Part shown: positions 9,933-64,000 of the stretch, piece by piece
How positions within the stretch are numbered: the stretch's first letter is position 1
How the letters are laid out: each line of letters opens with the position of its first letter
NCBI GenBank assembly: GCA_964016885.1
Contig: OZ024745.1
Location: forward strand, 12,152,001-12,216,000
From: Eledone cirrhosa
Lineage: Eukaryota
DNA: 64,000 nucleotides
Direction: 5' to 3'
Notes under the pieces: model-generated
Database searches by the model: none
What the model saw: the letters and a program-made list of their open reading frames with translations, nothing else
What the model was told of the DNA's origin: nothing
Program-made: the position numbers and the translations under genes

Positions 9933-9982
<50 letters not shown>

Positions 9983-9989
<7 letters not shown>

Positions 9990-10206
9990 ATACTTTGGGA
10001 GGGTCATGTTGCCAATAAGAAACACACGCACCAGTTGCTTTCACTTCAATTTATTATATATTTATAAATTTACAAATTTATAAATTTATAAATTTCTGGT
10101 TGGTTGGTGTGTTTCTTATTGGCAACATGACCCTCCCAAAGTATAACAATATCGGTTTCAACACACGATTTCAGATAAAGAATCTTGCTAAACAAATTCA
10201 GAAACG

Positions 10207-10301: not shown

Positions 10302-10343
<42 letters not shown>

Positions 10344-10347
<4 letters not shown>

Positions 10348-10764
10348 GAATATACAAGAGAGATAAACAAAAATATAAACATACATGTGTTCGAATTGTA
10401 AGGGACCAAGTTCGCTAATTTTTACACCCACTGAAGAGCAAAGAATTGGTAATTTCTTTCGCTAAAAATTACGGAACAGCTACCAAAGCTGTCTGGGTGT
10501 TCAAGCAGTTGCCCAATATAGGTTTGTTTTTCTTTTTCTTGATTTATTACTTTAAATTGAGCCTGGCAAACCATATTGTTATAGTTAGTATTTTTTTCAC
10601 CCTAGCGAACTTAGTCCCTTACAATTCGAACACATGTATGTTTATATCTGTGTTTATCTCTCTTGTATATTCAATTATATTACACGGCTCAGAAATATCT
10701 CTTTCTTTGAGTTATTTAATTGTAAGAGACTATTTTGTGTTTCTTACTCAATATATACCTTTGA
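10344..10764 (+). mobile_element. Inverted-repeat-plus-tail insertion in (TA)n containing an HHR-like motif
   Basis: Arms ~10344-10417 and ~10602-10678, tail to 10764. HHR-like motif acaccca-CTGAAGA...cagc-taccaaa-gctg-TC-tgggtgt at 10424-10500. Confidence 0.75.
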
Positions 10765-12587: not shown

Positions 12588-13351
12588 TCGTTTTGTTTCC
12601 TGTTCTAACAAAAAGAAATTATACAGAATATATCTTAGAGGATTGCTTAAAATGTTTGAAGATCTGTAAATATGGATGATTGTGTAAAATATGTAAATAT
12701 GTGTTTAGACTGAGTTGAAGATGTCTGGCGATCACGTGTCTCTTCCAGAAGTTGTGAGCGATAGTTAGTATCAGTTGGAAAGACTAATGGAAACATTGTT
12801 TCCTTGGTCCGACGAGTTTCACCCCACTCTGTGATGTCTGGGGTCTGGTCTATCGTTTCATGAGTTGGTGTTTAGGATAGGGGGGTGGGGTGAAGATAAA
12901 AATATAAATGAAGGATTATGAAGACGTTCTCAGAAGGTGTGTGTGTATCTATGTATGTGTGTATATATGTGTGTAAATATATGTGTGTGAATGTTTATGT
13001 TTCCGTTAGTATGATTGTGTATATCCGTATATGTGTCCTGACTTGCTTTCAATGGTGAATATTCTTGGTGTGTATATATATATTTTTCTTTTTCAATCCA
13101 TAATAAATAATGTGTCATTGAGAATCCTTTAATTAGTCAAACAGTAAACCACATAAGGCCCTTGTCCCCTCATTGGAGCAGCAGTCATTTGTATCAAGCC
13201 TAAAGTTATGTCTCGTAAGTATTCCAACACCCCGAAACGCTAAGTAAAAAAAAATACTTTTACACTTTTAGTAATTTTGATACGTTTCATTCATGTGTGA
13301 GTGTATGTGTGTCTGTATGTGTGTATGTGTGTGTGTATGCGTATATATATA

Positions 13352-13499
13352 TATTGTTATACTTGGGGAGGGTCATATTGTTGTAATAATATTGCCAGAA
13401 ATAATAACAGAACACACTCACTGTGAGTGTGTTCTGTTATTATTACAACAATATGACCCTCCCCAAGTATAACAATATTTCATATCAAAAACCTTGCAA

Positions 13500-15357: not shown

Positions 15358-15416
<59 letters not shown>

Positions 15417-15417
<1 letters not shown>

Positions 15418-15602
15418 CAAAGGAAATGTGGTAAGGAACTAAATGGACCATAACGCACCAGAGTACTCAATACTTGGAGTAGTAGAGTGGGAAATAGGAA
15501 AAAGTATGACCCCGACGGCAGAGCTCAAGCCGTTTCGACGGCTATTTCCAGAAATAGCCGTCGAAACGGCTTGAGCTCTGCCGTCGGGGTCATACTTTTT
15601 CC

Positions 15603-15604
<2 letters not shown>
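15417..15604 (-). mobile_element. Palindrome-plus-tail insertion, family C, with an HHR 3' half
   Basis: Palindrome 15495-15604, tail 15417-15494. Contains gccgtc-GAAA-cggc-ttgagctct-gccg-TC-gggg. Confidence 0.85.
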
Positions 15605-18125: not shown

Positions 18126-18849
18126 AATTAAGGGTGTCATGTCAGAGACATGCGCCATATCCACCGCAGAATAAGCTCAAAGATTCCAATGAATAGATCC
18201 GAGCATTTTACATCAACTAGAAATTGATTGACATATATATATATATTTAAAATAAACACACGAAACAATCACAGGGGATAATTTGTACAGTGTTTAAGCA
18301 CACATAGCTAGGTAGGTAACTAATTAAAGTTTAACTAGAACTTCAAATATTACCTTTTAAAAATGATCATTTTTAAAAGGTAATATTTGAAGTTCTAGTT
18401 AAACTTTAATTAGTTACCTACCTAGCTATGTGTGCTTAAACACTGTACAAATTATCCCCTGTGATTGATTCGTGTGTTTATTTTAAATATATATATATAT
18501 GTCAATCAATTTCTAGTTGATGTAAAATGCTCGGATCTATTCATTGGAATCTTTGAGCTTATTCTGCGGTGGATATGGCGCATGTCTCCGACATGACACC
18601 CTTAATTCTAAACTCTTAGTGTGAAGTTTGGCTTTGAAATAAATCTTTTGTGACATTAGTCCTGGAACTTTTCTGACCCACCTCGTATATGTAACACGTT
18701 ACTCTACTCAAGTTAACTATTAACTTTTATCAATAATCTAATCGATAACATAAGTACTGAGGCCGATTACCTCCCCTCCTATTACCCCCCCTTCCGTCGC
18801 CAAATTAATATATAGCTCTGAGTCAGCTATATATTATATTAGCAATTTT

Positions 18850-19335: not shown

Positions 19336-20054
19336 TATATATATATATAGAGAAATTACATGAATCAAAGTTCAGTTTAAATCATTTATTTGCTTACAAT
19401 TGTTTCCTCCAAACCGAGGTTTGGATTCTTTGGAGCAATTATTTAGTGATTTTTTACATACTTGACCTCCTATTCAACACAAGAGACATATAGAAACATA
19501 TGTATATATTGACCCACAGTGGGTTAACATCCATCATAATAATATAGCATGGCAATTTACATACAAAGATTACATTCATATTAGAGGACAAAATTAAAGT
19601 TAAAATTAAAATTAAAATAAAATTAAAATAAAACATTGGCAGTTTATGAAGATAAAGCAAGAGGAAAGTTTGGAGTAGCCAGTGTATGCAACAGTCTCAC
19701 GTGTGGCATGCACGCGTGTCCTATTTATACAAGATTATAGTGCGGCAGATTGTTACATATAAAACAAGCAGTCAAAGCAGGCAATCAATAGCATCATGGG
19801 GTCTGTACTGTTAAAGCATTTTTCACACACACCTGTACGATATAGAAGCCCGTGTGTAGAGAAACACCAAAAATATTACAAATGAGAAGCAAAACAGCAC
19901 CACTGTCCTCGCACACACCACCACTCACACTATCCAGGAAACGTAATTTATAGACTACATGTCCATCACACAATCCACGATGATTCAACATTGGGTGCCT
20001 GGTGAACCATGTTAGAAATCATAGCTTGTCGTTCTCTATTCGATTCTATAGAGC

Positions 20055-21869
20055 AGTAAGAAAATTTTAGATAAAATCATCCCACAGATTAAACACAAGA
20101 TATACCTTAAACAATGGGGGGAAACGGGTGAAGTGATTGAATGGTTCAAAGATATCAAGGATAACAAGGATAAACAATTTATTCAATTTGATATCAATTC
20201 ATACTACACCTCTATTTCCCCTATCCTATTAAATAAGGCACTTATCATGGCCATGGACAATAGTGACCTGACTAGACCCCAGATTGATGTCATACTTGCG
20301 GCCCGTAAAACAGTAATCACCTTTGAAGACCAATTATGGACCCGCAAAGATACGCAAAACAACTTCGACATAACCATGGTATCTAGTGACTCGGCGCAGG
20401 TCACTGATTTAGTCGGCCTATATTTACTTAACGAAATCCATAAGGACCTTCCATACCTCAACGGTGGTTTGTACTGCGATGATGCACTTCTACTTATAGA
20501 TTATAAAAAATTCAATATAGAAAGAACTAGAAAACTATTGCACAAGACATTCAAAAACTATAACCTTAGTATTACCATGGACAAAAACACTAAAAACGTT
20601 AACTTCCTGGACGCAACCCTCTACCTAGACTCAAAGATATATGCACCTTTCCACAAACCTAATGAAAAACTCATTTACGTAGATACCAAGTCTAACCACC
20701 CTAGATCTATATTAAACTCTATCTCTAAGGGAGTATCTAATAGAATCTCTAATCTATCCTATGACGTAAACATATTTAGCAAAAACTCGCAATATTATAA
20801 TCAGGCATTAGCTAGATCAGGCCATAATATAGAGATCGAGTTCCTACCTACAAAAACACATAGCTACAACATTATTTCGCACAACATGTCCATGAGAAAA
20901 TTTAGCAATAGGAATAGCAACCACACACACACTAATAGGGAGGATACCAACAAAAGTAACCCACACCACAGAAATTACCATAGTACCATAAAAGGAAACA
21001 ACTCACCAGACATAAAAAACAAAAATAGAAGAAATAATACATTTTTCAACCCTCCTTTCAATCTAAACGTCTCTACCAACCTACCTAGGGCTTTCTTCTC
21101 ACTACTAGATAAAAACTTCCCATCCGGCCACAAGTACCATAGCCTTTTAAACAAAAACACTATTAAAATCTCCTACTCTACTACGCCTAACATAGCATAC
21201 CACATAGCTAGTAGCAATAAAAGAAAAATTAATTCTTACTTCCAACAAACTAAATCACAACAGACGATAAACCTTCAAAATAACATTATAGCAACTAACC
21301 CTAATATCAATAGAAATAATAGTAATAGCACTAGTGTAAACAATAACGCTGGGAACCACAACCCACATAACCATAACCCTATAGCTACCATCCAGACTTC
21401 TACACAACATAATAACCGGCAGACTAACACCCTGAATAATTGTAACTATAGATCAAATAGAACCTGCCCTTTAGATAAAAAATGCTTAATCAAGGATATC
21501 ATATACTCATGCACAGTCACAACTAACAACTCTTCTGAAACCTATATAGGCTCTACTTCTAACTGCTTCAAAACTAGATACAATTCGCACCTCCACTCTT
21601 TCAAAAAACACAGTCTATCCAACTTCACTTCACTATCTAGCTACATACACTATCTAAAAACTAAAAATAAACCATATACACTTAAACGGGAAGTGATAGG
21701 TAATGCGACATCGTACAAACCACCTAATAAATTTTGTAACCTCTGTCTACTAGAGACCCATACTATCATCTTCTCAAACCATAACCTCCTTAATGAAAAA
21801 TCAGAAGTGTTCGCGTCTTGCCAACACCGCTTCCGACACTCCTTCCAAAACTTTAAACCCAATATATAA
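20055..21869 (+). pseudogene. 5'-truncated PLE reverse transcriptase + GIY-YIG endonuclease ORF
   Basis: Frame open from the inversion junction (SKKILDKII..QW..VIEWF). RT motifs FDINSYYTSI, GLYCDD, VNFLDATL, SNHP. Endonuclease CN..CPLDKKC..IIY..YIGST..FKTRYNSH..CNLC..LLNEKSE..CQH, which resembles the Naiad-group layout. Confidence 0.88.
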
Positions 21870-23399
21870 CAATGTCAGACTTGAACCCGTCACCACCTCT
21901 AGCAACTAACATCAGGAGCACACCTTACACCTCATCTCCACACCCATTAATCCACTTTAACGCAAATAGTGACACCCTCATAGTACCTTTTACCCTAGAG
22001 ATATCCCCATGTACTTCTACTTTTGGTATATTGGCCTTAGATTACTTGGACTACATTGCACCAATATATAATTAATGTAAACTGTAAGCACTGAATTGGT
22101 TGTACTAACATTGTCCTGTGCATGGAGTGCCACCATTAGATAATTAGAAGATTAAGTAATTAATTTATTAACATAAAAGAGCTATATAATCTATATGCTG
22201 AGTGCAATGAATTGTGTACAGGTGATGTATGAGTTATAGGTACATGTATGGCTTGATGGTCAGATTAGTGTCCTTGTATGAGAGAATTGATCTCTGGACC
22301 ACCCTGGTGATATTTAACTTTGCCATGCATTCAGACATACAATGACCCAGAGCTTACCAGGAGTCGTATATAGAAGTGATTCTAATAAGACCCTGCCAGG
22401 TTCTGCGGGTAGACTACACTTACAAAGATCATTGATTTGGAGGTCTGACTCTTCGTGTAGAATGTTCGGTTGTGGCACTCCATGATAGAAGGTAATCATC
22501 CTAATATGAACACCTTTAGTACTTCTTGATAGACTACACTGTAATTTATAGATAAGATACTTAAATTTAAAAATTGTTTATAACCTTATATGATAGGGAC
22601 TCATTTGAAACACCATTAATGTACTTTAGGATAATAAATTTAACTATGGAAATCAGCTAGTTACCTCCCCTTACGCATTAACTCCCCTTACGCATTAACT
22701 CCCCTTAATCACACACACACTTCCGGAATATAATACGATGTCAACTCTCACAACAAAAACAACCTGCTCTATAGAATCGAATAGAGAACGACAAGCTATG
22801 ATTTCTAACATGGTTCACCAGGCACCCAATGTTGAATCATCGTGGATTGTGTGATGGACATGTAGTCTATAAATTACGTTTCCTGGATTGTGTGAGTGGT
22901 GGTGTGTGCGAGGACAGTGGTGCTGTTTTGCTTCTCATTTGTAATATTTTTGATATTTTTGATATTGTTGGTGTTTCTCTACACACGGGCTTCTATATCG
23001 TACAGGTGTGTGTGAAAAATGCTTTAACAGTACAGCCCCCATGATGCTATTGATTGCCTGCTTTGACTGCTTGTTTTACATGTAACAATCTGCCGCACTA
23101 CAATCTTGTATAAATAGGACACGCGTGCATGCCACACGTGAGACTGTTGCATACACTGGCTACTCCAAACTTTCCTCTTGCTTTATCTTCATAAACTGCC
23201 AATGTTTTATTTTAATTTTATTTTAATTTTAATTTTAACTTTAATTTTGTCCTCTAATATGAATGTAATCTTTGTATGTAAATTGCCATGCTATATTATT
23301 ATGATGGATGTCAACCCACTGTGGGTCAATATATACATATGTTTCTATATGTCTCTTGTGTTGAATAGGAGGTCAAGTATGTAAAAAATCACTAAATAA

Positions 23400-23448
23400 T
23401 TGCTCCAAAGAATCCAAACCTCGGTTTAGAGGAAACAATTGTAAGCAA
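23400..23448 (+). ncRNA. Variant or degenerate hammerhead in the pLTR (antisense copy at 19390-19438)
   Basis: ttgct-CCAAAGA-a-tccaaacc-tc-ggttt(a/g)ga-g-GAAA-caattg-TA-agcaa. All three stems form, but the core differs from CUGANGA. Confidence 0.55.
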
Positions 23449-23647
23449 ATAAATGATTTAAACTGAACTTTGATTCATGTAATTTCTATATAACTGCTCT
23501 GTAAAACAACTGATGTTGTTACATTGAGCTATTTATCTTACTGGTAATAAGATAGTAATGAATTACTGTCTTTCCCTATTTAGGGTTTAAAATATATATA
23601 ACTATAAAAGGTTTTAGTATATACATAACCATAAATAGTATCCTTAA

Positions 23648-24019: not shown

Positions 24020-24277
24020 GAATGACTGGGACAGACTAATTCAGTTTGAACCAGACTGAACCAGTATCAGAGTTAAAAATACATTATGAAGAGAGAAGAA
24101 ACATTTAGATATAATTAGTAATAAAATGTATCATACCCAAACTGTTCCTAAATTCCTTTGATATATTGTTTTTGTTTATGCCACGAAACTACGTAGTCGA
24201 GGAATTTAGGAACAGTTTGGGTATGATACATTTTATTACTAATTATATCTAAATGTTTCTTCTCTCTTCATAATGTA
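24020..24277 (-). mobile_element. Inverted-repeat-plus-tail insertion with an HHR 3' half
   Basis: Perfect arms 24080-24157 and 24200-24277. GAAA-ctacgtag-TC-gagg at 24185-24202. Left boundary approximate. Confidence 0.75.
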
Positions 24278-24332
24278 TATATATATATATATATATACAT
24301 ACATCCCTCTCTCTTCCCTCTCTCTCTCTCCC

Positions 24333-26004: not shown

Positions 26005-26091
<87 letters not shown>

Positions 26092-26300
26092 GAAAAGAGT
26101 CAGAACCCCGACGGCAGAGCTCAAGCCGTTTCGACAGCTATTTCTGGACAGCTATTTGAGTCCAGAAATAGCTGTCGAAATGGCTTGAGCTCTGCCGTCC
26201 GGATTCTGACTCTTTTCCTATTACCCACTCTACTACCCAAAGTATCGAGTACTCTGGTGTGTTATGGTCCACCTGGTTCATTACCACACTTCCTTCGTTA
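26092..26300 (+). mobile_element. Palindrome-plus-tail insertion, family C
   Basis: Palindrome 26092-26217, tail to 26300; same sequence family as 15417-15604. Confidence 0.85.
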
Positions 26301-26689
26301 TATATATAAGAAAGAAAGTACTAAAGCGCAGAAATACTATAAAGATAGCCTATAAAATAGGGTGAGGCTATCTTTATAGTATTTCTGCACTTGAGCACTT
26401 CCTTTATATTTAATAATAATAATAATTAAATAAAACAACGAAGGAAAGGGGGAGGGACAGGCTTTATACCCCAATAGTGATGCCCCACAGACAGAATGGT
26501 AAACGTCACCGAGAAGAGCCAGCAACTCCCGCTACAACAGTCACCCCGCCTCACGGGGCTCCTTCTTCAAGTGAGCTTCTGTCTTTCCAGTTTTACTGAG
26601 GAAATCGGCAGTGGTGGTGGGTGGACACCATTGGTAATTTTAAATGATATGATACGTTAAATAACTTGACATTCTACAACTGAATCTAA

Positions 26690-28667: not shown

Positions 28668-29027
28668 CCAAAGATTAATATGGTTCATTGATTACTCAAT
28701 GAATATAGTTTTACAATTGATTAAAAGCACTCTACAAAAAAGTTTTCTGGAGTTATTATTATTCAGAATAATAATAGATGAAGACATTCACATAATCAAA
28801 ATATGTTTTATTATATATATTTCGAAGGTGCTGTGGTGTTTTTTCAGTACGTCATCGTCAGATAAAGGTCTTGATGGTTCAATTGAACCATCAAGACGGT
28901 TGAGGTTATGTCATACATCAATTCATGTATTTTATCTGACGAGGACGTACTGAAAAAACAGAACAGTACCTTCGAAATATATATAATAAAACATATTTTG
29001 ATTATGTGAATGTCTTCATTTATTATT

Positions 29028-29032
<5 letters not shown>
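28666..29032 (-). mobile_element. Inverted-repeat-plus-tail insertion with an HHR in both arms
   Basis: Arms ~28763-28866 and ~28931-29032, tail on the left. Central mini-palindrome gtcttgatggttcaattgaaccatcaagac. Confidence 0.8.
28930..28991 (+). ncRNA. Minimal type I hammerhead ribozyme with canonical core (antisense copy at 28806-28866)
   Basis: ttttat-CTGACGA-ggacgtactg..cagtaccttc-GAAA-tatata-TA-ataaaa. Confidence 0.72.
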
Positions 29033-29114
<82 letters not shown>

Positions 29115-38049: not shown

Positions 38050-38059
38050 TATATATATA

Positions 38060-38310
38060 TAGGAAAATGTATTACCCCGACGGCAGAGCTCAAGCCGTTT
38101 CGATGGCTATTTCTGGACTAAAATAGAATTTTTTTATTTTAAAGTGAAAAAAAAAAAGAAAATTCTATTTTAGTCTAGAAATAGCCGTCGAAACGGCTTG
38201 AGCTCTGCCGTCGGAGTCATACATTTTCCTATTACCCACTCTACTACCCTAAGTGTTGAGTACTCTGGTGCGTTATGGTCCATCTGGTTCCTTACTACAA
38301 CTCCTTCGTT
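38060..38310 (+). mobile_element. Palindrome-plus-tail insertion, family C
   Basis: Palindrome 38060-38231, tail to 38310. Confidence 0.85.
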
Positions 38311-51788: not shown

Positions 51789-54312
51789 TTCTTTATTGGC
51801 CACAAGGACTGACATCAAGAAAAACATTACAGACGGTACAGGACGGTTCGATGTGGGTTTTGTGCGTGTAAAGATTTTTATTATTTATATAAGAAAAGAA
51901 AAAAAAAAGGACATAGAAACATATATATATATAAACAATAAAAATGAAAATTGAAACAATGAAAAATTCCCCAATAGGGGGGAAACCTCCGAGGGTTACT
52001 CGTGGCGAAAACCACACAAAAGACCACGGCCACTCTGACCACCAGGGCAAGCACCCTCTCTCAATTTTTTCCATTCCTCAAGCTACAAGCGTATATTCAG
52101 AGCGGTCCCGTTCACTCGGACCATTCTCGCTACATTCACCCACCTTTCAACAAACTTGCTAGAAGGCAGCACTTGCCTCTCCACCCTGATTTTCCTCTTC
52201 AAGTGAAACTTGAAAGAGTTAATTAGGGATTCAACGAAGAGGAAAGTGTCTGTCTTTAACCCTTTTAACCTTGTCCACCACACAATCTCTTTCGCCATAG
52301 CCACCAGGCAGATGAAAACCACCTGCCCTTCCTCCTCGAAGGAAGACGGCGAGACCATCTGCACAATGGACTCAGTCGATAACCGGATCAGTCCTACACG
52401 CGACAGCAACTGTTCGACATAGCTCCACAAGTCAGCAATGCTCGGGCACTCAACGAGTGCGTGCACGACGGTTTCGTCGCTCTGCGCGCATCTCGGGCAG
52501 GCTCGGGTGACAACACTTCCGTGCCTGTAGAGATTATCTCGAACCGGCATCGCTCCCCGGTAGCACTGCCAGGCCAGGAATTTTTGGAAATTATCCATAG
52601 GCCCTGGGCTGAAAGTTCTCCGGAAGATAGCAAACAGCTGATCTTCTTCGACGCCCAGGATCTCTCCGAGAACGTCGTCGCTCTTCCCCTCCACTATTCC
52701 TCTATAAAACGCCGAGGTGGATGTTCCACCGATACTGGTGCCCAGCTGGCAGAGGGCAGTGAGCGCCTGGAGGCATTCCAGTTTCCAAGCGCTATCCCTC
52801 GGTCTTTTCCTGACCCAGGACTGCAGATCCGTCAAGGAGACGAGCTGTGGGAAAACGTGCCTGGCGAACGGCGAACACACCTGTTCACCGTCAAGGGAGC
52901 ACCAGAGATGCCGCAGCCTCAGCACATGTTTGCGCATCATCAGCCATGGCATGCCCAGTCCTCCACGCAACGGGTGTTGACAGCAGATGGATCGTCTGAC
53001 CATGGGAGCGCGTCTCTTCCACAAAAAGCGGAAGAGGGGGCGCTCCATTTTTGTGAAAGTTGGGCCGGGGCAAGGGACGACGGTGAGGCGGTAACAGATG
53101 ACGGATGCGATGTACGCATTCGCCACCTCCGCCCGGCCTTTCAGGGACAGCTTCCTCTCGGCCCATTTCTGGGTGAGGGAGGCCACCTTGCTCGTCACCT
53201 CGCTCCAGTTTTTCTCCATCTGGAGGTCCAGTCTGAACCAGACGCCGAGAAATTTAACCGGTCCATCCGTCCAACGCCCCACGACGCTGTCGGACGGCAT
53301 GGACTTGCCTCTCCAGGTGCCGAGCTGCAAGCCCACCGACTTTTCCTGGTTTATCTTTGCTCCTGTCATCGCTTCGCATTCCTTGAGAGCGGTGCCGAGC
53401 ATCTGGACGTGTCTGGTACTCGACACCACCACGCTGACGTCGTCGGCGTAAGCCGATTCAGATTTCCCGCATCCTAGTTCACGTGGGACGCCCCTCATCG
53501 CCCCCAGTTTGTGCAGTAACGGCTCGAGAGCCAATACGTACAAGAGGGACGAGAGGGGACAACCCTGGCGGTCCGAGCGCATGATGCTGAACGGCTGCGA
53601 CAGGTGACCGTTCACCCTTACAACTGAGCAGATGTCTCTGTACATCGCAGCGATCCAACCACTGAAAACGGGCCCGAAACCGGCTGCCTCGAGGACCGCC
53701 GCCAGGTACCGATGGTCGACCCTATCGAATGCTTTGGATTGATCCAAGTTGATCAGGGCCCCACTCGTGCCAGGTTCCTTAACCACCCTCTCTATGATGT
53801 ATCGCATGAGGTGGAGGTTGTCGTGGATGGATCTGTCCGGAATGGCGCATGTCTGCGCCTCTCCCACCAGACCACCAACGACAAGCGCCAACCTCGTTGC
53901 TAACACCTTGGCCAAAATCTTGAACTCTGCGTTCAGCAGGGTTATGGGCCTGAAGTTATCGATAACATCCCCCTTGTTCGGATCTTTTCTCAGCAGCGCC
54001 ATCGCTCCCCGGCTCACAAAACTGGGAATGCTCCCGTTCTGCTGCCAGTTGCAGTAGACGTCTGCCAAGAGGTCACCGAACAAGTCTGGCATAAATGCAT
54101 AAAGTTCGTAGGGCAGACCATCCAAACCTGGCGATTTACCCCTCGTGCAGTTAGCCATCGCTTCCCGTATTTCAATGGCTGTTATTGGCTTTTCGCAACA
54201 CTGTGCTGCGGTCGTCGAGAGCCGAGGCAGTCCGTCGAGGTATGCACTGAAGTCTATACCCCGATCCGGCCCGCCGCTGCTCCCTAACAGTTCAGCAATG
54301 TGCTGCTGAAAA
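51788..54312 (-). mobile_element. 5'-truncated Tx1/L1-like LINE (RT and C-terminal Cys-rich region; ORF 52083-54158)
   Basis: KSPGLDGLPYE, NFRPITLLNAEFKILAKVLA, LDQSKAFDRVDH, RQGCPLS, AYADD, GGLG, CPRC..ETVVHALVEC. 3' AATAAA followed by (ATT)n. Confidence 0.92.
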
Positions 54313-54460
54313 GATTAAATCGACCCCAGTACATTACTGGTGCTTTATTTATCGACCCCGTAAGGATGAAAAGCAAAGCTAACTTCGGCGGGAGTTGAAC
54401 TCAGAACGTAAAGGGACGTAACTCTATACCACAAATCATGTGACGCTCTACCAATTCTTG
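54313..54460 (-). mobile_element. S1 SINE abutting the Tx1 5' truncation point
   Basis: Reverse-complement S1 body; tail missing. Confidence 0.75.
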
Positions 54461-54999
54461 CCCACAACACACCTCCTCTATACAACTGTAAAGGTGTGTG
54501 AGCTACTCATTTCAGATATCCGCCTCGGTCTCCGCTTGACCCAAAACTGAAGTTTAGTCAACGAGACGAACAAGGAAAAGATATGGCAAATATTTTCAAA
54601 TGCCATAACCTCAGTACTTGTTTGTGCAACAGTCACTTCTTCCACTTTTATTTTCTCACAAATTTGTGGCCGAGCGATAAGATTTTTATCTTTCTCCCTG
54701 AAGTGTTCGAAACTTTAGTCCTCTCCTTCCTCGCGATATAAAATATATTTTATTGTTAAAACTATTTTTATTACTTTTGCTGACGTAAAATATCACTAGT
54801 TTCTTGATATTCGGTTGTTTTATTTTTTTTTTAAATGACTTTGTGCCAAATCAAAAGAAATCATTATTTGAGTAACAGTCAGATTTCTTAATAAAAGCCA
54901 GTGAACTCGGCTGTCAAATATTTTCCACTCAAGAAAACAAAGCGAATAATTGCAGAAAGTGATATATAGAGAGAAGAGAGTAAGAAAAAAATGTAGAAA

Positions 55000-55120
<121 letters not shown>

Positions 55121-55667
55121 TTAAATCTGTTAATAGATTTGTCTTCATTCTTTTATTATAAATTCTTTCTCTTTGCCGTTTCTTTCTCTGATTGCTGGAC
55201 TATTATTATATAGGCTTTTGTGAATGTTTACTTAGCCCAAACACATCTGCTTGTACAAACTCTTATCTAGCATCCAATGCACACCTGTCACCTCAAATGA
55301 TGACTTTAAGAAACTACAGGCCCTTGACAAATTTATTCGTCTGTTTTCTTATAAATTGGAAATCCTTGCTAATTCTTGTGTACCTCCAAAAAGCTATTAT
55401 CAATAACAGTCTCATTACTGATATATATATCGTTTGCTGTTCAATAGACAAATATATTTGTTCAGTAATGATACTGTTTGTTATGAAATTGCGTTCTTTC
55501 AATTTATTTTCGTTTTTTAATAATTTTTTTTCTTTTAATTTTCGAACATTGCTCTGCGATGTTTTGGTTTTCCGGCAAAATATTTCAAGTAGGAATTTAT
55601 AAAATATATTAAAATACAGAAAAAAAAGTTGGAGGTGCATTAGATATCCCCAAGAATATCAATGAAG

Positions 55668-56134
55668 TTTGAAGATAATACCAGTCTTTTAACTTTGAAG
55701 ATAATACCAGGTTTTTAACTTTGAAGATAATACCAGTCTTTTAACTTTGAAAATAATTGTTTCTACTTTTGGCACAAGGCCAGCAATTACTCAGTGCATT
55801 ACTGGTACTTTATTTTATCGACCCCGTAAGGATGAAAGGCAAAGTAAACCTCGGCGGGATTTACCAGTCTTTTAACTTTAAAAATAATTGTTACTACTTT
55901 TGGTACAAGGCCAGCAATTATCCCAGTATATTACTGGTACTTTATTTTATCGACCACGTAAGGTTGAAAGGCAAAGTTAACCTCGGCCGGATTTGAACTC
56001 AGACCATAAAGGGACGTAACTGTGCTGCAAAGCATGGTGTCTGACTCTTATGCTTTAACTTTGAAGATAACACCAGTCTTTTAACTTTGACGATAATACC
56101 GGTCTTTTAACTTTGAAGATAATACCAGTCTTTT
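55668..56134. repeat. 26-bp minisatellite interrupted by two S1 SINE copies (55755-55862 and 55884-56050, both -)
   Basis: Unit tttgaagataataccagtcttttaac occurs on both sides of and between the SINEs. Confidence 0.85.
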
Positions 56135-56539
56135 CAATACAGATATGTAAGAAACCTAGCTGTCAAAGTAAAATAAAGTTATGGCAACTAGGGAATGTAT
56201 CTATCATCCTATTTGTAATTGGGATAAATTCTGTAACACAAAAGCAGTTCTGTAAAGGTAATAACAAATTATCTATCAGTATAGACAAAAGAACATTCCA
56301 GAAAATAATAATACTAAGATTTACAAACGTTGTTAGGGTATTTTCATGCAGTATCTATTAAATTTAGACTTACCAAATTCAGAGTATTTCATTAGAAATA
56401 CGGTGATAAAAGACTACATCATCTTTACATGTGGAAGATTCAGCAGTTTCCATAGGTTCTACCTAATTCATGTTATACAAATTGTAACTCTTCATATATT
56501 TACTAAACCATGAATTATTATTATTCATTTCTTCTAAGA

Positions 56540-56762
56540 CCGGTAGATTGGCAGTAGAATCGGTAGAGCGTCAGACTACATACTTTGCGGCATAAAGTTA
56601 CGGTCTTTTATGTTCTGATTTCAAATCCCGCCGAGGTTAGCTTTGCCTTTCATTCTTATGGAGTCAATAAAATAAAGTACTAGTAATGCACTGGAGTCGA
56701 TTTAATCGACTTTCCCCTCCAAAAAACATTGTTGACCTTGTGCCTAAATCAGAAACCATTAT
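56540..56762 (+). mobile_element. S1 SINE
   Basis: S1 consensus. Confidence 0.8.
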
Positions 56763-56879
56763 TCATCTCTTCTATTTGCTCGGCATTTCGTTGTTCCTCT
56801 GTCGTTGAGTTTCTAGACCTCAAGCTGTTTCCTGCAGTCATAGGTATCTACTACCTTTCCATGAGACTTGCTGTGCCAA

Positions 56880-57560
56880 GCAAATATCATGAAATTCACG
56901 TCTATATCCAACATCTTCAGCCAACCATCCAAACCTCTGGCCATTGTCTATATCCAACATCTTCAGCCAACCATCCAAACTTCTGGCCATCATCCCTATG
57001 GTGTCCAATTGGGATAACAACTTCAGAAAATAATTTCAGATATCGTATTTCAAGTCTTTCTACTTTTATATCTTCTCGCTTTCTTTGTATCTCGAATGAA
57101 ATAGGCAAGCAACAACGAATAACCAACACACACTTTCGTCTTTATTGGGTATAACAATATCTGGATTTGAACATTCCATTTGCCTCTGCTTTTGTATCTT
57201 CGTGTCCCATAATACTTTTACGCAATTGTTTTCAAGAACACCTTCTGGTTTGTGGCTATATCACTTCTTCGTATGTTCAAATTCAAACTTTTTATACATT
57301 CGCCATTGTAAGATTGTAGCAACTTTGCCGTATCTCCAGTTTTATAATGTTTTATCTTTCGTGTTTTTAATTACAATGTCTGAGATGTTTGCTTTGATTT
57401 CCCAAAGTTCTACCTCCTTCTACTCTTCCTCAGTAAATTCTATCAATAATCTTTGGATGATGCATCTTCACTGTTGTCAGCATTTTCCTTGTTTTAGTAT
57501 CTTGTTTCTTTCACTCATTGTCCAGTTGCTGTTGAAACTGTACCTTACTACAGGTATAAC
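56880..57560 (-). pseudogene. Old degenerate Dong/R4 RLE-domain relic
   Basis: The - strand reads SHKPEGVLENNCVKVLWD..NPDIVIPNKDESVCWLFVVAC..KDLKYDI, with stops. Confidence 0.65.
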
Positions 57561-57580
57561 CAGATTAGAGAACATTATTA

Positions 57581-57775
57581 TAGGTGGTGGATTGGCAGTA
57601 TCGGTAGAGAGTCGGACACCATGCTTTGACGCATAGGGTTACGTCCCTTTATGATCTGAGTTCAAATCCCGCCGAGGTTAACTTTGCCTTTCATCCTTAC
57701 AGGGTCGATAAAATAAAGTACCAGTAATACACTAGGTAATTGCTGGCCTTGTGCCAAAAGTAGAAACAATTATTA
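57581..57775 (+). mobile_element. S1 SINE
   Basis: Full S1 consensus; its (ATT)n tail runs into an R4 3' end. Confidence 0.87.
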
Positions 57776-57783
57776 TTATTATT

Positions 57784-59360
57784 ACAGTTGCATTTATCTT
57801 GCTTTATGTTCATACGAGCTATCACCAAGTCACAACCAGTGACGTCAAGAGACAACAAGGTCCGCCATGTTCAAGAAAGAACACACACACACATGCATCT
57901 TTAGGTGTTTAGACTTGTGATGTACTTATATTGACAGAATATTCCTTAGTATATGGGCAGTACCCATTAGTACTATCTTTTGTATTTCTTCTATACGCGT
58001 GTTTCCTGGGATTTGGGATAAGTAATCATTAGACCCCTTAGGTATCATTCCCAGAGCGCCTACAACCACTGGTATTGTTTTAGTTCTCAATTTCCACATT
58101 TTTCCAATTTCTATCTCCAGGTCCGTATACTTGCTCAATTTTTCAAATGTTTTTATAGATACATTCTTGTCTATTGGAACGGACATATCAATTAGCAGGC
58201 ATAGCCTCTTTTTAAAGTCCTTCAGTATTATATCACGTCTATTTGCATCTATTTTTCGGTCTGTTTGGATGCTAAAGTTCCACAAGATTGAGATGTGATC
58301 TTTTTCAAGTACGGGGGGTGGTTGATGCTCCCACCAATTCTTTTGATGGGGCAGATCAAAATGCTTACACATTATCCAATGTATGTATTGTGCAGCTCTG
58401 TCGTGCCTGTTTAGGTATTCGGTTGGAGCTATAGGACTGCACATTGAAATTATATGATCAATGGTCTCTGGTTGTTTTTTTACATACACGTCATAATGGG
58501 TTGCATCCATTTTTTATTATGTTGGCTTGGTAATTTTTTGTTGGCAGACACTGATCTTGTGCTGATATAATCAGTCCTTCAGTTTGCGATTTCAGTCAAG
58601 AGGATGCCAACCATTGATGGGTTAAAGTTTTGTCAACATCAGGATTGTTAGCTCTTTCTGGGTATTTTCCATACAGAGGCTTTTCTTGCCATTTCTTAGC
58701 CAGTTCTGTAGCAGTTCTTTCTTTGCAGTTACTTTTACCTGCTTTGCTTTTTCTGTGTTTTTCATTTCAGCAGTAAATGGAACTTCTGAAATTTGTAGTT
58801 CATAACTGTATCTTTGTGCATTTTTGTAAAGAGTTCGATCATCCAATTATGTGATTCCCTTAGATATGTAGATAATCCAATTGTTGCAGTTTTCAACGCA
58901 ATGTCTAACTGGATTAACCCACGTCCTCCTTCTTTCCTAGGGAGATATATTCTATCTATATCTACCTTAGGGTGATGCATTCTGTGCATGATTAAGAATT
59001 TTCTAATTATTGTATCGAGCGTACGGATCTCTGTGCTTGACCAGTTGATGACATTGTAACTGCAGGTTACTACTGGTATGGCAAGCGTGTTTATGGCATC
59101 GATCCTATTCCTTGCATTCAATTCCGTTCTTAAGATTGCTCTTACTCTGCGGTAACATTCCTTCCTTATCGATTCCCTCATTGTCGAGTGCTTGATTCCG
59201 TCTCCTTCACAAACACCTAGATATTTGTAAGTTTCCTCTTGATCAAGTTCTCTTATCACATTCCCCCGATCAAGATTAATGTCTGAATTTTTCAGCAGCT
59301 TTCCTCTGGTGAACGTTGCTTTGGCGCATTTATCTGGTCCAAACTCCATTTTAATGTCAA
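57784..59360 (-). mobile_element. 5'-truncated, disrupted Dong/R4 LINE (family B)
   Basis: Close homolog of 61556-64000 with frameshifts and a small deletion (ORF pieces 57926-58510 and 58762-59412). Confidence 0.9.
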
Positions 59361-59392
59361 ATAATGTTATTATTATTATTATTATTATTATT

Positions 59393-60965
59393 GTTCTTTG
59401 AGTCTCAGTCATTGATGTTAGTTAACTGGAAAGTTTGTTGAAATGAATATCAAGCCATTACCTGCAGCCTCAGATATTCAGGACGTATCGGAGGGTTCTT
59501 GCTGTTCCCAGCAAGCATGCCTTTTGAAGTGTTCCAAAAAGCGTGGCGGGGCCAATTTTCTTTAACCATCCCTGGAAACTTTTTGAGATAGTACTTAGTG
59601 CGCCTATGACAATCGGGACCACTTTGACTTCATGGCAGTTCCAAATCCTTTTTACCTCCCACTTTAAGTCCTGGTATCGGTTAATTTTCTCCCTCTCCTT
59701 CTCTTGCACTCTCGTGCTGAATGGGCAGGCCACATCCACAATCAGGCACGATCTATTTTCCTTGTCCAAAACCACCAGGTCAGGTCTATTGTATTCTAGT
59801 TTCTTGTCCGTCTGTATCCTAAAATCCCACAGCACCTTCACCTGATCGTTTTCTATCACCGACTCTGGCTTATGCTCATACCACTTCTCAGAATGTGGTA
59901 AATTGTTTACTCTGCATAGGTGCCAGTGGATCACCCTGCCCATCACATCATGTCTCCAGCCCTTATAGTGAGTCTGGGCTAGGTGTTTACACGCGGATAC
60001 AATGTGAGCCACAATCTCCTCTCTCTCTCCACAGATCCTGCACAGTGGGCTAGCCTCCTCCTTGTAAATATGGTGTTTCAACCACTTCGTTTTGAGGGCC
60101 TGCTCTTGCGCAGCCATTAACATTCCTTCTCTAGCCTTTTTAAGGTCTCCTCTTTTCAACCAGTTCCATGTCTGTGGATCTCTGAATTCAGTTTTCTCAA
60201 AGAAGGTACTATGAAGGGATTTTTCATGAAGGCTGCTCTTTCTCCTTGTTGATATTTCCTCCTTGGACATCCCCTGGTCTATTGTTCTCTCCTTCAGTAC
60301 AAATCTGAGCATTGGCTCCTTACGATCAGTCACGTATTTGTGTAGGTTGTTTTTCTCCATCTGAACACAGTCCTCTATGCTGATAAGACCTCTTCCACCT
60401 TCAGATCTCTTTAAGTAGAGTCTATCGACATCACTCCTCTTGTGGAACATGTTGTAGATAGTCAATAGCTTCCTAGTCTTCCTATCCATTTCTTTTTGTT
60501 CAGCAACATTCCATCTCAGAATTCCCGCACTGTACCTAATAATAGACACAGCTCGGGAATTTACTACACTTATGGCATTCCTACTGTTCAGATGTGACTT
60601 TAATACGCTCCTTATTCTCCGAATGTATTCAAATCTTATCAATACATTCATTTTGTTGTTCTTGATGTCATCGGGCTCCAGAACACCCAAATACTTGTAC
60701 CCTTCTTCAGTGTCAATTTCCTTTATCATCTCACCTGTTGGTACCTGGATTCCGTTGCTTCTGCTCAATTTACCCCTCTTCATCACAAGGACTCCACACT
60801 TACTAATACCAAATTGCATACATATATCATTGCTGAAAATACGGACAGTGTCAACAAGCACATCCAACTCCACCTCACTCTTCACGAAGAGCTTAAGATC
60901 GTCCATGAGAGGAGGTGATTGATGGTAAGCTCTCCCTTTCCCAACTTGTATCCTGCTCTCACTTT
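59393..60965 (-). mobile_element. 5'-truncated Dong/R4 LINE (subfamily A2; ORF 59470-60906)
   Basis: MDDLKLF RT motif, YKYLGV, CCHC knuckle, RHD, PD..D RLE motifs; (TTA)n flanks. Confidence 0.92.
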
Positions 60966-60966
60966 A

Positions 60967-61020
<54 letters not shown>

Positions 61021-61034
61021 GTTGTTGTTGTTAT

Positions 61035-61533
61035 TCCTTGAATCTCAGTCATTGATGTTGGTTAACTGGAAAGTCCGTTGGAATGAATATCAAGCCACTA
61101 CCTGCAGCCTCAGATATTCAGGACGTATCGGAGGGTTCTTGCTGTTCCCAGCAAGCATGCCTTTTGAAGCGTTCCAAAAAGCGTGAAGGGGCCGATTTTC
61201 TTTAACCATCCCTGGAAACTTTTGGAGATAGTCCCCAGTGCGCCTATGACAATCGGGATCACTTTGACTTCATGGCAGTTCCAAATCCTTTTCACCTCCC
61301 ACTTTAAGTCCTGGTATCGGTTAATTTTCTCCCTCTCCTTCTCTTGCACTCTCGTGTCGAATGGGCAGGCCACATCCACAATCAGACACGATCTTTTTTC
61401 TTTGTCCACAACCACCAGGTCAGGTCTATTGTGTTCCAGTTTCTTGTCCGTCTGTATCCTAAAATCCCACAGCACCTTCACCTGATCGTTCTCCATCACC
61501 GCCTCTGGCCTATGCTCATACCATTTCTCAGAA
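61035..61533 (-). mobile_element. Short Dong/R4 3' fragment (subfamily A1)
   Basis: RLE domain and 3' UTR nearly identical to those of 49886-51060. Confidence 0.9.
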
Positions 61534-61555
61534 TTATTATTATTATTATTATTAT

Positions 61556-64000
61556 TACAGTTGCATTTATCTTGCTTTATGTTCATACGAGTTATCACCA
61601 AGTCACAACCAGTGACCTCAAGAGACAACAAGGTCCGCCATGTTCAAGAAAGAACATACATATTCACACATGCATCTTTAGTGTTTAGACTTGTGATGTA
61701 CTTATATTGACAGAATCTTCCTTAGTATATAGGCAGTTCCCATTAGTACTATCTTTTGTATTTCTCCTATACGCGGGTTTCCTGGGATTTGCGATATGTA
61801 ATCATTAGACCCCTTAGGTATCATTCCCAGAGCGCCTACAACTACTGGTATTGTTTTAGTTCTCAATTTCCACATTTTTCCAATTTCTATCTCCAGGTCC
61901 TTATACTTGCTCAATTTTTCAAATGTTTTTATAGATACATTCTTGTCTATTGGAACAGACATATCAATTAGCAGGTATACCCTCTTTTGAAAGTCTTTCA
62001 ATACTATATCAGGTCTGTTTGCATCTATTTTTCGGTCTGTTTGGATGCTAAAGTTCCACAAGATTGAGATGTGATATTTTTCAAGTATGGGAGGTGGTTG
62101 ATGCTCCTACCAATTCTTTTGATGGGGCAGGTCAAAATGCTTACACATTATCCAATGTATGTATTGTGCAGCTCTGTCATGCCTGTTTAGGTATTCGGTT
62201 GGAGCTATAGGACTGCACATTGAAATTATATGGTCAATGGTCTCTGGTTGTTTTTTGCATACACGGCATAATGGGCTGCACCCATTTTTTATTATGTTGG
62301 CTTGGTAATTTTTTGTTGGCAGACACTGATCTTGTGCCGATATAATCAGTCCTTCAGTCTCCGATTTCAGTCCAGAGGATGCCAACCACTGATGGGTTAA
62401 AGTTTTGTCAACATCAGGATTGTTAGCTCGCTCTGGGTATTTTCCATACAGAGGCTTTTCTTGCCATTTCTTAGCCAGTTTCTGTAGCAGTTCTTTCTTT
62501 GCAGTTACTTTTATCTGCTTTGCTTTTTCTGTGTTTTCCATTTCAGCAGTAAATGGGACTTCTGAAATTTGTAGTCCATTACTGTATCTTTGTGCATCTT
62601 TTGTAATGTAATATGATCTTTTGATGCTTTCGTGTTTCAAAACGAGTTTGATCATCCAATCATGTGATTCCCTTAGATATCTAGATAATCCAATTCTTGC
62701 AGTTTTCAACGCAATGTCTAACTGGATTAACCCACGTCCTCCTTCTTTCCTAGGGAGATATATTCTATCTATATCTGCCTTAGGGTGATGCATTCTGTGC
62801 ATGGTTAAGAATTTTCGAATTTTTGTATCGAGCCTACGGATCTCTGTGCTTGACCAGTTGATGACATTGTAACTGTAGGTTACTACTGGTATGGCAAGCG
62901 TGTTTATGGCATCGATCCTATTCCTTGCATTCAAATCCGTTCTTAAGATTGCTCTTACTCTGCGGTAACATTCCTTCCTTATCCTTTCCCTCATTGTCGA
63001 GTGCTTGATTCCGTCTCCTTCACAAACACCTAGATATTTGTAAGTTTTTTCTTGATCAAGTTCTCTTATCACGTTCCCCCGATCAAGATTAATGTCTGAA
63101 CTCTTCAGCAGCTTTCCTCTGGTGAACGTTGCTTTGGCGCATTTATCTAGTCCAAACTCCATTTTAATGTCATCACTGAACTGCTTCACAGTGGATAATA
63201 GTCCTTGCAATTGTTCATCATTTTTTGCAAATAGTTTCAGGTCATCCATGTAGAACAGGTGATTAATGGTTTTGTCATAGACTTTATATCCATGTTTTGT
63301 TTCATTGAGCATTTTACTTAATGGTATAAGTGCGATGCAGAATAAAAGCGGTGATAAAGAGTCACCCTGAAAAATTCCACAATTAATATTAACTTCTCCA
63401 GCTTCCAGTGATTTTGTTTCACTATTCAAAAGGAGTGTCGTTTTCCATGTCTTCATACTGAATGACAAAAACCTCCTGACAACGGGGGATACTTTGAAAA
63501 TTTCTAAACATTTTTCAATCCAACTGTGTGGCAAACTACCAAATGCTTTTTTATAATCTATCCAAGCAATCGATAGATTTTTGTGTCTATTATGACAATC
63601 TTCCAGTATCATTTTGTTAACCAGAAGCTTATCCTTACAGCCATATGAACCTCGTTTACACCCTTTCTGCTCAATGGGAAATAGGTCATTTGTTATCAGG
63701 TGGTCATATGTGTATTCAGTTAGGACTGATGTTAAAATTTTATACATTGTGGTCAAGCAAGTTATCGGTCTGTAATTTTTGGGATTGTTTGTCTCATCAT
63801 TCTTCGGTAGCAGGAATGTAATGCCGTTAACTAGCCATGAAGGTATCTTTTCTGGCTCCTTAACTATTTCATTGTAAAGTTGGGCTAACAGCTCATGAGA
63901 CTCTGTGAAGGCATTTATCCAAAAGTTTTGTATTTTGTCTTTTCCTGGGGATTTCCATTTGCTGGTTTTTCTTAGAGCCAAGCGCAACTGTTCAACTGTT
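61556..64000 (-). mobile_element. Dong/R4 LINE (family B) running off the window end; ORF broken by one nonsense codon
   Basis: WKSPGKD, NYRPITCL, WIDYKKAF, GIFQGDSLSP, FYMDD, CRVC..H..C, RHD, RPDIVL. ORFs 62107-63987 and 61702-62061 share a frame, separated by a TAG where the 57784 copy has TGG. Confidence 0.93.

Follow-up and report, generated by a model that had tools for sequence, protein, structure and literature searches.

Three palindromic hairpins in a 64,000-nucleotide stretch of the Eledone cirrhosa genome (the window) are almost certainly stubs of a Penelope-like element (PLE). The parent unit is 3.1–3.5 kb long and possesses an ORF with reverse transcriptase (RT) and GIY-YIG endonuclease regions, together with a complete predicted hammerhead that has a U3-A8 core; the family is new, and its insertion layout is one already known for PLEs. 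The two arms of each stub probably derive from two separate cDNAs made from the same source lineage.

The three copies, located at positions 15415–15604, 26091–26300 and 38059–38311 of the window, share one layout: two (TA)n runs enclose an inverted arm and then a direct arm that carries an 80-nt tail. Both arms of each copy, inverted relative to each other, read GAAATAGC..GTC-GAAA-stem-GAGCTC loop-stem-GTC, with a stem of 4–5 bp beside the GAGCTC loop and GTC next to it. An earlier note on this DNA had described the three inverted copies, with arms reading GAAA-stem-GAGCTC loop-GTC and CTGANGA absent, as stem II, GAAA, stem III and the GUC of a hammerhead; the copies are confirmed, and so is the identification of the arms as a hammerhead's 3′ half, with stem II represented by its 3′ strand. 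The accompanying claim that only the spacer differs stands for the distances between paired GAAATAGC starts, which are 2, 20 and 64 nt in copies 1, 2 and 3, and fails for the arms: private variants are present on both arms of each copy, and in every copy part of the apparent spacer is additional arm sequence. The left TTTC-gacggctatttc is the reverse complement of the right arm and not the native 5′ strand of stem II, which in the complete form is GNTCGGCTATTT.

Positions along the element are given as q1–420, the final 420 nt of the natural long copy L009 serving as the reference, with the core at q235, GAAA at q298, the predicted cut after q320 and the arm ends at q340 and q420. Copy 1 fills 15415–15604 between its (TA)n runs. 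On the minus strand it carries an 80-nt tail (q341–420, 15415–15494) on one arm only, which the earlier range of 15495–15604 had left out, and the tail-bearing arm (q286–340, 15495–15548) with the stem II 3′ strand, GAAA, stem III, GUC (15514–15536) and the stem I 3′ strand. Its tailless arm (q284–340) follows on the plus strand at 15549–15604, with a half hammerhead at 15563–15585 and a terminal TA that joins the (TA)n run. Copy 2 begins with the tailless inverted arm on the minus strand (q281–340, 26091–26149; half hammerhead 26110–26132), followed on the plus strand by a junction filler (26150–26158) consisting of a short re-copy of the arm and one non-native G, by the tail-bearing arm (26159–26220; half hammerhead 26177–26199), which starts directly at A280 of an initiator-like motif, and by the 80-nt tail (26221–26300). 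We infer that this G, directly before A280, is a candidate cap-derived G. Copy 3 has a tailless inverted arm on the minus strand (about q266–340, 38059–38133; half hammerhead 38079–38101) that extends past q280, an A/T-rich junction filler (38134–38158), and, on the plus strand, the tail-bearing arm (about q267–340, 38159–38231; half hammerhead 38190–38212) and the 80-nt tail (38232–38311). The constant feature of the three copies is the pair of outer arm ends, q340 and q420.

The 5′ half of the hammerhead core and the 5′ strand of stem I are missing from all three copies, none of which contains CTGANGA or TTGANAA. No CTGANGA was found upstream of the stubs, and canonical cores occur in the window only at 28861 and 28936, in another family. 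An Rfam scan of the window (76 matches at E up to 1) returned no hammerhead family; the matches on the copies were hairpin-driven, sub-threshold miRNA and sRNA hits. An assembly artefact was rejected as the origin of the palindromes, as the arms differ by 0–3 of 35–51 letters, fillers stand at the junctions, and there are tens of thousands of copies.

The window holds other repeats of related form. A second Hydra-type element at 19346–23492 includes an ORF remnant (20052–21866) with 36% identity to the 719-aa protein described below; inverted arms of 538 bp frame it, the tail lies on the right, and there is a degenerate hammerhead-like end. The canonical cores belong to a palindrome of the other family at 28760–29037, in which two complete cores (CTGACGA) stand head to head. 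Further long inverted repeats adjoin (TA)n at 9982–10152, 10340–10680, 13351–13478, 18126–18607, 24079–24278, 26311–26405 and 38792–38925, several of them with a one-sided extension, and 103 more such palindromes, of other families, were seen in the genomic loci examined. A long 23/26-nt minisatellite runs from 44240 onwards, and 49819–63999 contains ORF fragments of other non-LTR retrotransposons.

A 23-mer from the arms has 20,798 exact matches in the 3.0-Gb genome and its reversed control has none, so the palindromes are not chance products. Read by eye, 13 of the 30 best-matching loci extend upstream through a complete hammerhead-like region, and in two loci (L009 and L031) the stub sequence leads on into frames for endonuclease and RT. 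Tandem arrays carry intact ORFs of 717–719 aa in units of about 3.53 kb (3,118 bp at locus L158), and in these tandems the tail runs on into the 5′ leader and then the ORF; the window copies match the end of an intact unit at 83–91%. The 719-aa ORF has YRDD and, C-terminally, a GIY-YIG endonuclease with VIY..YIG, in addition to DKT at 117, CNCPDRSIC at 572, CNLC at 670, CKH at 698 and, at 37, RWR in place of RWK; GxKF/Y and CX2-5CxxC are both absent from this protein, and a single cysteine lies within the GIY-YIG core as judged by inspection rather than by alignment to CCHH-bearing clades. Among 7,998 scored candidates, 2,018 homologues were found at E up to 1e-10, mostly near 40% identity. 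Pfam gave no match for the whole 719-aa protein, a weak GIY-YIG match for a fragment of it (E 0.023), and GIY-YIG at 1e-05 for the top homologue.

Matching these motifs to the published clade description places the parent as a Hydra-type PLE; we write ‘Hydra-type’ because the hammerhead core departs from the clade trait and the placement follows a description, not an RT tree. The canonical core, a described trait and not the basis of the clade, is replaced here by U3-A8. The family is distinct from Hydra-1_oBim, as the hammerhead listed for the latter has a different sequence. Features of the EN+ Penelope layout are all present: a partial-tandem pLTR, an inverted 5′-truncated copy and a one-sided tail. 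Two other classes were rejected. A MITE or palindromic DNA element disagrees with the one-sided tail, the copy-specific junctions and the continuity with the RT ORF, and the window copies are not direct tandem units with a complete type I hammerhead, as a non-LTR retrozyme would be. Elsewhere in the genome, locus L241 (G000:C2:356029700-356032400) is a retrozyme-like array of about seven 299-bp units that belong to the present family, with the U3-A8 core in each.

Complete hammerheads, which the earlier note had anticipated, do exist in the long copies, with TTGANAA and not CTGANGA as their core. These copies consist of stem I (ACCCC with GGGGT), TTGANAA, stem II with an upper hairpin, GAAA, stem III and GTC; stem II comprises G, two unpaired letters, CGGCTATTT with AAATAGCCG, T and C. 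A loose hammerhead pattern has 5,343 matches, and among the first 100 listed, 88 have T and 12 have C at position 3 of the core, all have A and none has G at position 8, and N7 takes all four letters between fixed flanking positions. The long copies thus have three helices, a core with a 3-8 pair, a free N7, GAAA and UH, as in type I hammerheads. Unconstrained folding gave a three-way junction in all four natural copies folded, with z-scores of −3.16, −1.71, −1.69 and −0.55, strong in only one of the four. Of the alignment cells, 90.9% are paired; two of 21 pairs change on both sides, the copies being too close, and the covariation scores were matched by 31–53 of 500 shuffles. We regard the long copies as carrying a complete predicted hammerhead with a U3-A8 core, for which self-cleavage after GUC is putative. 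A subfamily with C3 and A8 (for example at loci L162, L165 and L213), in which the 3-8 pair is broken, has many copies (12 of the 100 listed). Hammerhead searches that depend on CUGANGA overlook an entire high-copy family.

To describe the insertions genome-wide, the first 100 places of the 23-mer listed on contig 1 were taken, unselected for their ends, yielding 81 loci and 67 head-to-head pairs that include a few internal palindromes or doubled calls. The shorter arm stops at q340 in 46 of the 67 pairs and the longer at q420 in 52; both outer ends finish in TA joined to (TA)n. Under a strict pattern, TA repeats follow the tail end in 49 of 57 cases and the q340 end of the non-tail arm in 46 of 57. 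The copies form a continuum of lengths that rises from stubs to intact ORF-bearing tandems, and most of them are short and palindromic. The three window copies had been thought to invert at one hammerhead position; their inner arm starts are q284/q286, q281/q280 and about q266/q267, and the claim retains a statistical basis, as 90 of 134 arms start within q277–287, which is 40 nt upstream of the predicted cut. At the base of stem III, q315–325 holds a smaller group of stops. The EN+ PLE units described in two reports likewise have a head-to-head inverted truncated copy and a one-sided tail (PMC8557442; PMC3846280). For an Anolis element studied in vitro, both target strands are described as cut and extended, and the tail as the stretch between two internal RT start sites (PMC11167929). 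By analogy, q340 and q420 may be two internal RT start sites that bound the 80-nt tail; (AT)n stands behind q340 and q420 at loose ends in four contig sets, although contigs cannot show RNA ends.

Whether the arms are made at each insertion or inherited from a palindromic master bears on how they agree with each other. Of 111 unique pairs, 68 have q290–335 on both arms; among these, arm distance is 0.051 within pairs and 0.091 between pairs, a value as low as the former arising in none of 2,000 permutations. Four subfamily sites agree in 65/65, 67/68, 65/68 and 64/68 pairs, as compared with chance expectations of 0.78, 0.80, 0.59 and 0.46. At site q323 the arms agree no better than by chance (53 of 68 pairs, 0.77 expected); its G/A difference shows A in 11 tail arms and in three tailless arms of the 68. 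A nearest-neighbor test, limited by the shortness of the arms, recovered the own partner among the nearest for just 25 of 68, and we relied on the site concordance and the permutation rather than on trees. Arms do group within copies, as one branch of the earlier note had predicted. A palindromic master with two back-to-back half ribozymes, spreading as a unit by retrotransposition or as a MITE, was also put forward there, and the predominance of short palindromic copies and the recurrence of some junctions (one in 12 of 47 sampled arms) would suit it. Nonetheless, left and right arms share subfamily alleles within a copy, the junctions vary among copies, one junction type occurs on different subfamily backgrounds, the length continuum reaches intact ORF-bearing tandems, and, with a tail on one side only, the ends do not qualify as terminal inverted repeats; the chance that a master explains the family is very small. 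Beside arms made at each insertion, minor re-copying of stubs may occur.

Concordant arms would also follow if one cDNA, or an antisense RNA, snapped back at stem II and were self-copied anew at each insertion, and self-priming of this kind has been proposed for the inverted arm of PLEs in an account that leaves alternatives standing (PMC3846280). Many nearly symmetric junctions, fillers that are re-copies of arm sequence, and the symmetric arms past q280 of window copy 3 and locus L027 point the same way. The repeated fold-back at stem II of the earlier note thus accounts for the concordance of the arms; it does not account for copies in which neither arm lies inside the other, and fold-back requires one arm to be nested in the other. 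Asymmetry was counted on re-checked pairs, as an initial list of 21 pairs contained BLAST break artefacts. For 138 arms that reach q285, the partner is cut short (start beyond q295) in 21, and the shortened partner is the tail arm in 20 and the tailless arm in one, leaving the extra sequence on the tailless arm 20 to 1. Seven of the 20 shortened tail arms begin beyond q340 and have zero overlap with the other arm; within q296–325, where both arms are detectable, the split is 10:1 (p=0.012). Solo tailless arms occur (5 of 138), and long insertions can have very unequal arms, as at locus L033 with 220 nt and 1.3 kb. Deletion on one side after insertion could be the source of some asymmetric copies, but would not be expected to prefer one arm. 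Taken together, we judge fold-back improbable and two separate cDNAs the better account of the arms. In the open-access literature, covered mostly as titles and the beginnings of abstracts, we found no two-cDNA or capped run-off origin for Penelope inverted arms.

If the arms are two cDNAs, the pile-up of their starts calls for a cause. The native context at q280 is TTAGTC or TCAGTC, with A at q280, inside stem II; a Drosophila initiator is given as TYAGTY (PMC6483594), and TYAGTC at q280 is initiator-like by a consensus that is short and from Drosophila. Genome-wide, the letter before A280 is G in 6,140 arms, A in 1,013 (G:A 6:1) and T or C in 24,428; a non-A letter precedes G281 in 8,372 arms, with G, at 18 of the first 100 listed, the rarest non-A letter. 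Of 30 G loci sampled, 29 could be classed; 11 are readable from the partner arm, and the partner does not explain 16 of the 29 G cases or 13 of 20 A cases, which scales to about 3,400 and 660 arms. A pattern with 6,361 matches was kept out of the rate, as it missed upstream letters of an older subfamily. Copying of the cap has been given as the source of an untemplated G found at a 5′ end (PMC3287187). Among 47 T/C arms from 40 places within the first 100 listed, a sample richer in C (19/47) than that listing (28/100), five are native for at least 8 nt, 16 are partner-derived, and 26 have one to seven further letters, T-rich in 20, that may be native or added; a single recurrent junction, with a short stretch of homology to the native upstream sequence, accounts for 12 of the 47. 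Because T or C is commonest before A280 and the one to seven T-rich letters are ambiguous, the boundary of arm starts is q276–281 and not a single base. Window copy 3 and several others continue 10–30 nt past q280 on both arms.

A transcription start is, in our estimate, the likely cause of this pile-up, on the strength of these sequence patterns. Alternatively, two separate cDNAs could end there because the upper stem II hairpin, or protein bound to it in the primed copy, makes the RT stall, as might be expected with q277–284 being the 3′ strand of that predicted hairpin, with the minor stop cluster at the base of stem III, and with full-length copies deriving from RNAs that extend upstream. 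We examined 30 loci in which the tail continues into the leader (227 matches): 21 run through the ORF and 20 of these extend upstream past q300, only one of the 20 ORF-crossing copies (1/16 with tandem arrays counted once) ending near the upstream q280, and two more of the 30 loci pass q280. In 19 of 20 copies the same structure is thus crossed at its second encounter, and this read-through argues against a fixed structural block; it also means that a second class of RNA is needed, since full-length copies start at q280 in only one of 20. Seven direct re-start copies, with a piece from q482–1238 followed by a segment that begins at q277–283 in all seven, suggest jumps after run-off. A stall does not predict the position-specific excess of G, and the array of 299-bp units, in which the upper stem II hairpin is lacking, also begins at q279.

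A sister family (L306–L335; 22,832 matches, about 50% protein identity) shares the layout of two ends, tail and (TA)n, and its hammerhead-like core reads CAGAAGA, with A at position 4. Its TTAGTT lies at the edge of stem I, and most arms run past the site; in a listing of 100, the A of TTAGTT is preceded by a non-native G in six cases, by a non-native C in one and by a non-native A in none. The G signal tracks the initiator-like motif and not the helix, the numbers for the sister family being small, and a G excess at the edge of stem I again disfavors a stall, which we hold to be unlikely. T-runs before the sister-family start were considered as added letters and proved to be native variants. 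At L319:1506-1640 (oriented), a sister-family arm is directly joined to a main-family arm starting at about q279, possibly by a jump between RNAs of the two families. The hammerhead-cleaved RNA end at q320 is a further candidate for the source of arm ends. A few tail arms start at q318–325, and among 13 matches for direct jumps to that end, four end exactly at q320, a weak hint in the genome of hammerhead cleavage, and five at q325–326. The main pile-up, however, precedes the cut site by 40 nt, and the GUC and stem III, which would be lost on cleavage, are still present in the arms; as the origin of the main class the cleaved end is refuted, it may serve a minor class, and as a general explanation it is extremely improbable.

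Given these observations, we propose, with confidence somewhat above even, that priming at two internal sites yields two cDNAs, each of which runs off the RNA at a capped start, and that the two are then joined head to head. The endonuclease would cut both strands of a (TA)n target, and each 3′ end would prime reverse transcription at an internal RNA site, q340 or q420. Most cDNAs would end at about q280, likely the capped 5′ end of the RNA at the initiator-like TYAGTC in stem II; as this start lies inside hammerhead stem II, the RNA would begin with only half a ribozyme. Joining of the two cDNA ends would then involve trimming, short homology or filler, unless one of them jumped to another RNA, and long copies would come from RNAs that reach further upstream, such as tandem read-through. 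Three further ideas are speculative: a start inside stem II may keep self-cleavage from removing the priming sites, long copies may be built by strand transfer, and two RNAs may pair through the GAGCUC loop. More tentatively still, a promoter start within the element's own hammerhead might leave at the 5′ end a half ribozyme unable to cut off the two priming sites, with a complete copy only at the 3′ end, with strong-stop-like cDNAs and the stubs as failed transfers; we find this possible and rather doubtful.

If that last reading is true, tens of thousands of palindromic stubs would record missing steps of Penelope transposition, including the origin of the inverted arm and the pseudo-LTR; priming would occur near the RNA 5′ end on both target strands, and more copying would need a jump or strand transfer. 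The origin of the PLE inverted arm is stated as open in two reports (PMC3846280; PMC8557442), the in vitro PLE study describes the steps after priming as unvalidated (PMC11167929), and an internal promoter of Penelope has been described (PMC2377424). To this mechanism the family brings about 40,000 arms and intact source copies: the asymmetric insertions argue for two cDNAs, and the start cluster predicts an RNA start at one base. High RNA editing is reported for octopus (PMC5625713), and a transcribed stub, being a ready-made hairpin, may bear on it. The layout itself was known and the three window copies are inert remnants; what is added is a variant ribozyme core and genome-scale evidence on an open mechanism.

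In retroviruses, priming near the RNA 5′ end yields minus-strand strong-stop DNA, a short run-off cDNA. Should the model hold, the stub cDNAs would resemble it by analogy, not by membership, and would differ in having no tRNA primer, integrase or LTR and a strand transfer that is hypothetical. The EN+ PLE insertion units, as far as they are described (PMC8557442; PMC3846280), share with the present family a head-to-head inverted arm, a tail restricted to one of the arms, partial tandems, strong truncation at the 5′ end and an AT-rich or (TA)n target; tail length is 80 nt here and 30–40 nt there, and most copies here are stubs of 60 + 140 nt with a sharp start cluster inside the hammerhead. The Hydra clade in its published description (PMC8557442) has the same C-terminal GIY-YIG, DKT, CxCX5C linker, CxxC, CxH and (TA)n target, and the same lack of GxKF/Y; our family differs in RWR for RWK, in a unit of 3.1–3.5 kb against generally under 3 kb, and in U3-A8 against the CTGA.. 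of every Hydra hammerhead in part 2 of that report's supplement. A U3-A8 swap is described for the hammerhead of the Schistosoma Cercyon PLE (PMC4209133), as are a type I layout, a long helix II, a G10.1-C11.1 pair and a palindrome in loop III; the present family belongs to a different clade, has a stable helix III of 5–6 bp, and is dominated by U3-A8 (88 of the 100 listed, with 12 C3-A8 and no G8). In Anolis Poseidon, the tail is reported to be bounded by two internal RT start sites that lie downstream of the hammerhead, both target strands to be extended and the target to be AT-rich, features shared with the family as interpreted here (PMC11167929); the sites lie in the ORF there and here in the 5′ leader, upstream of the first ATG.
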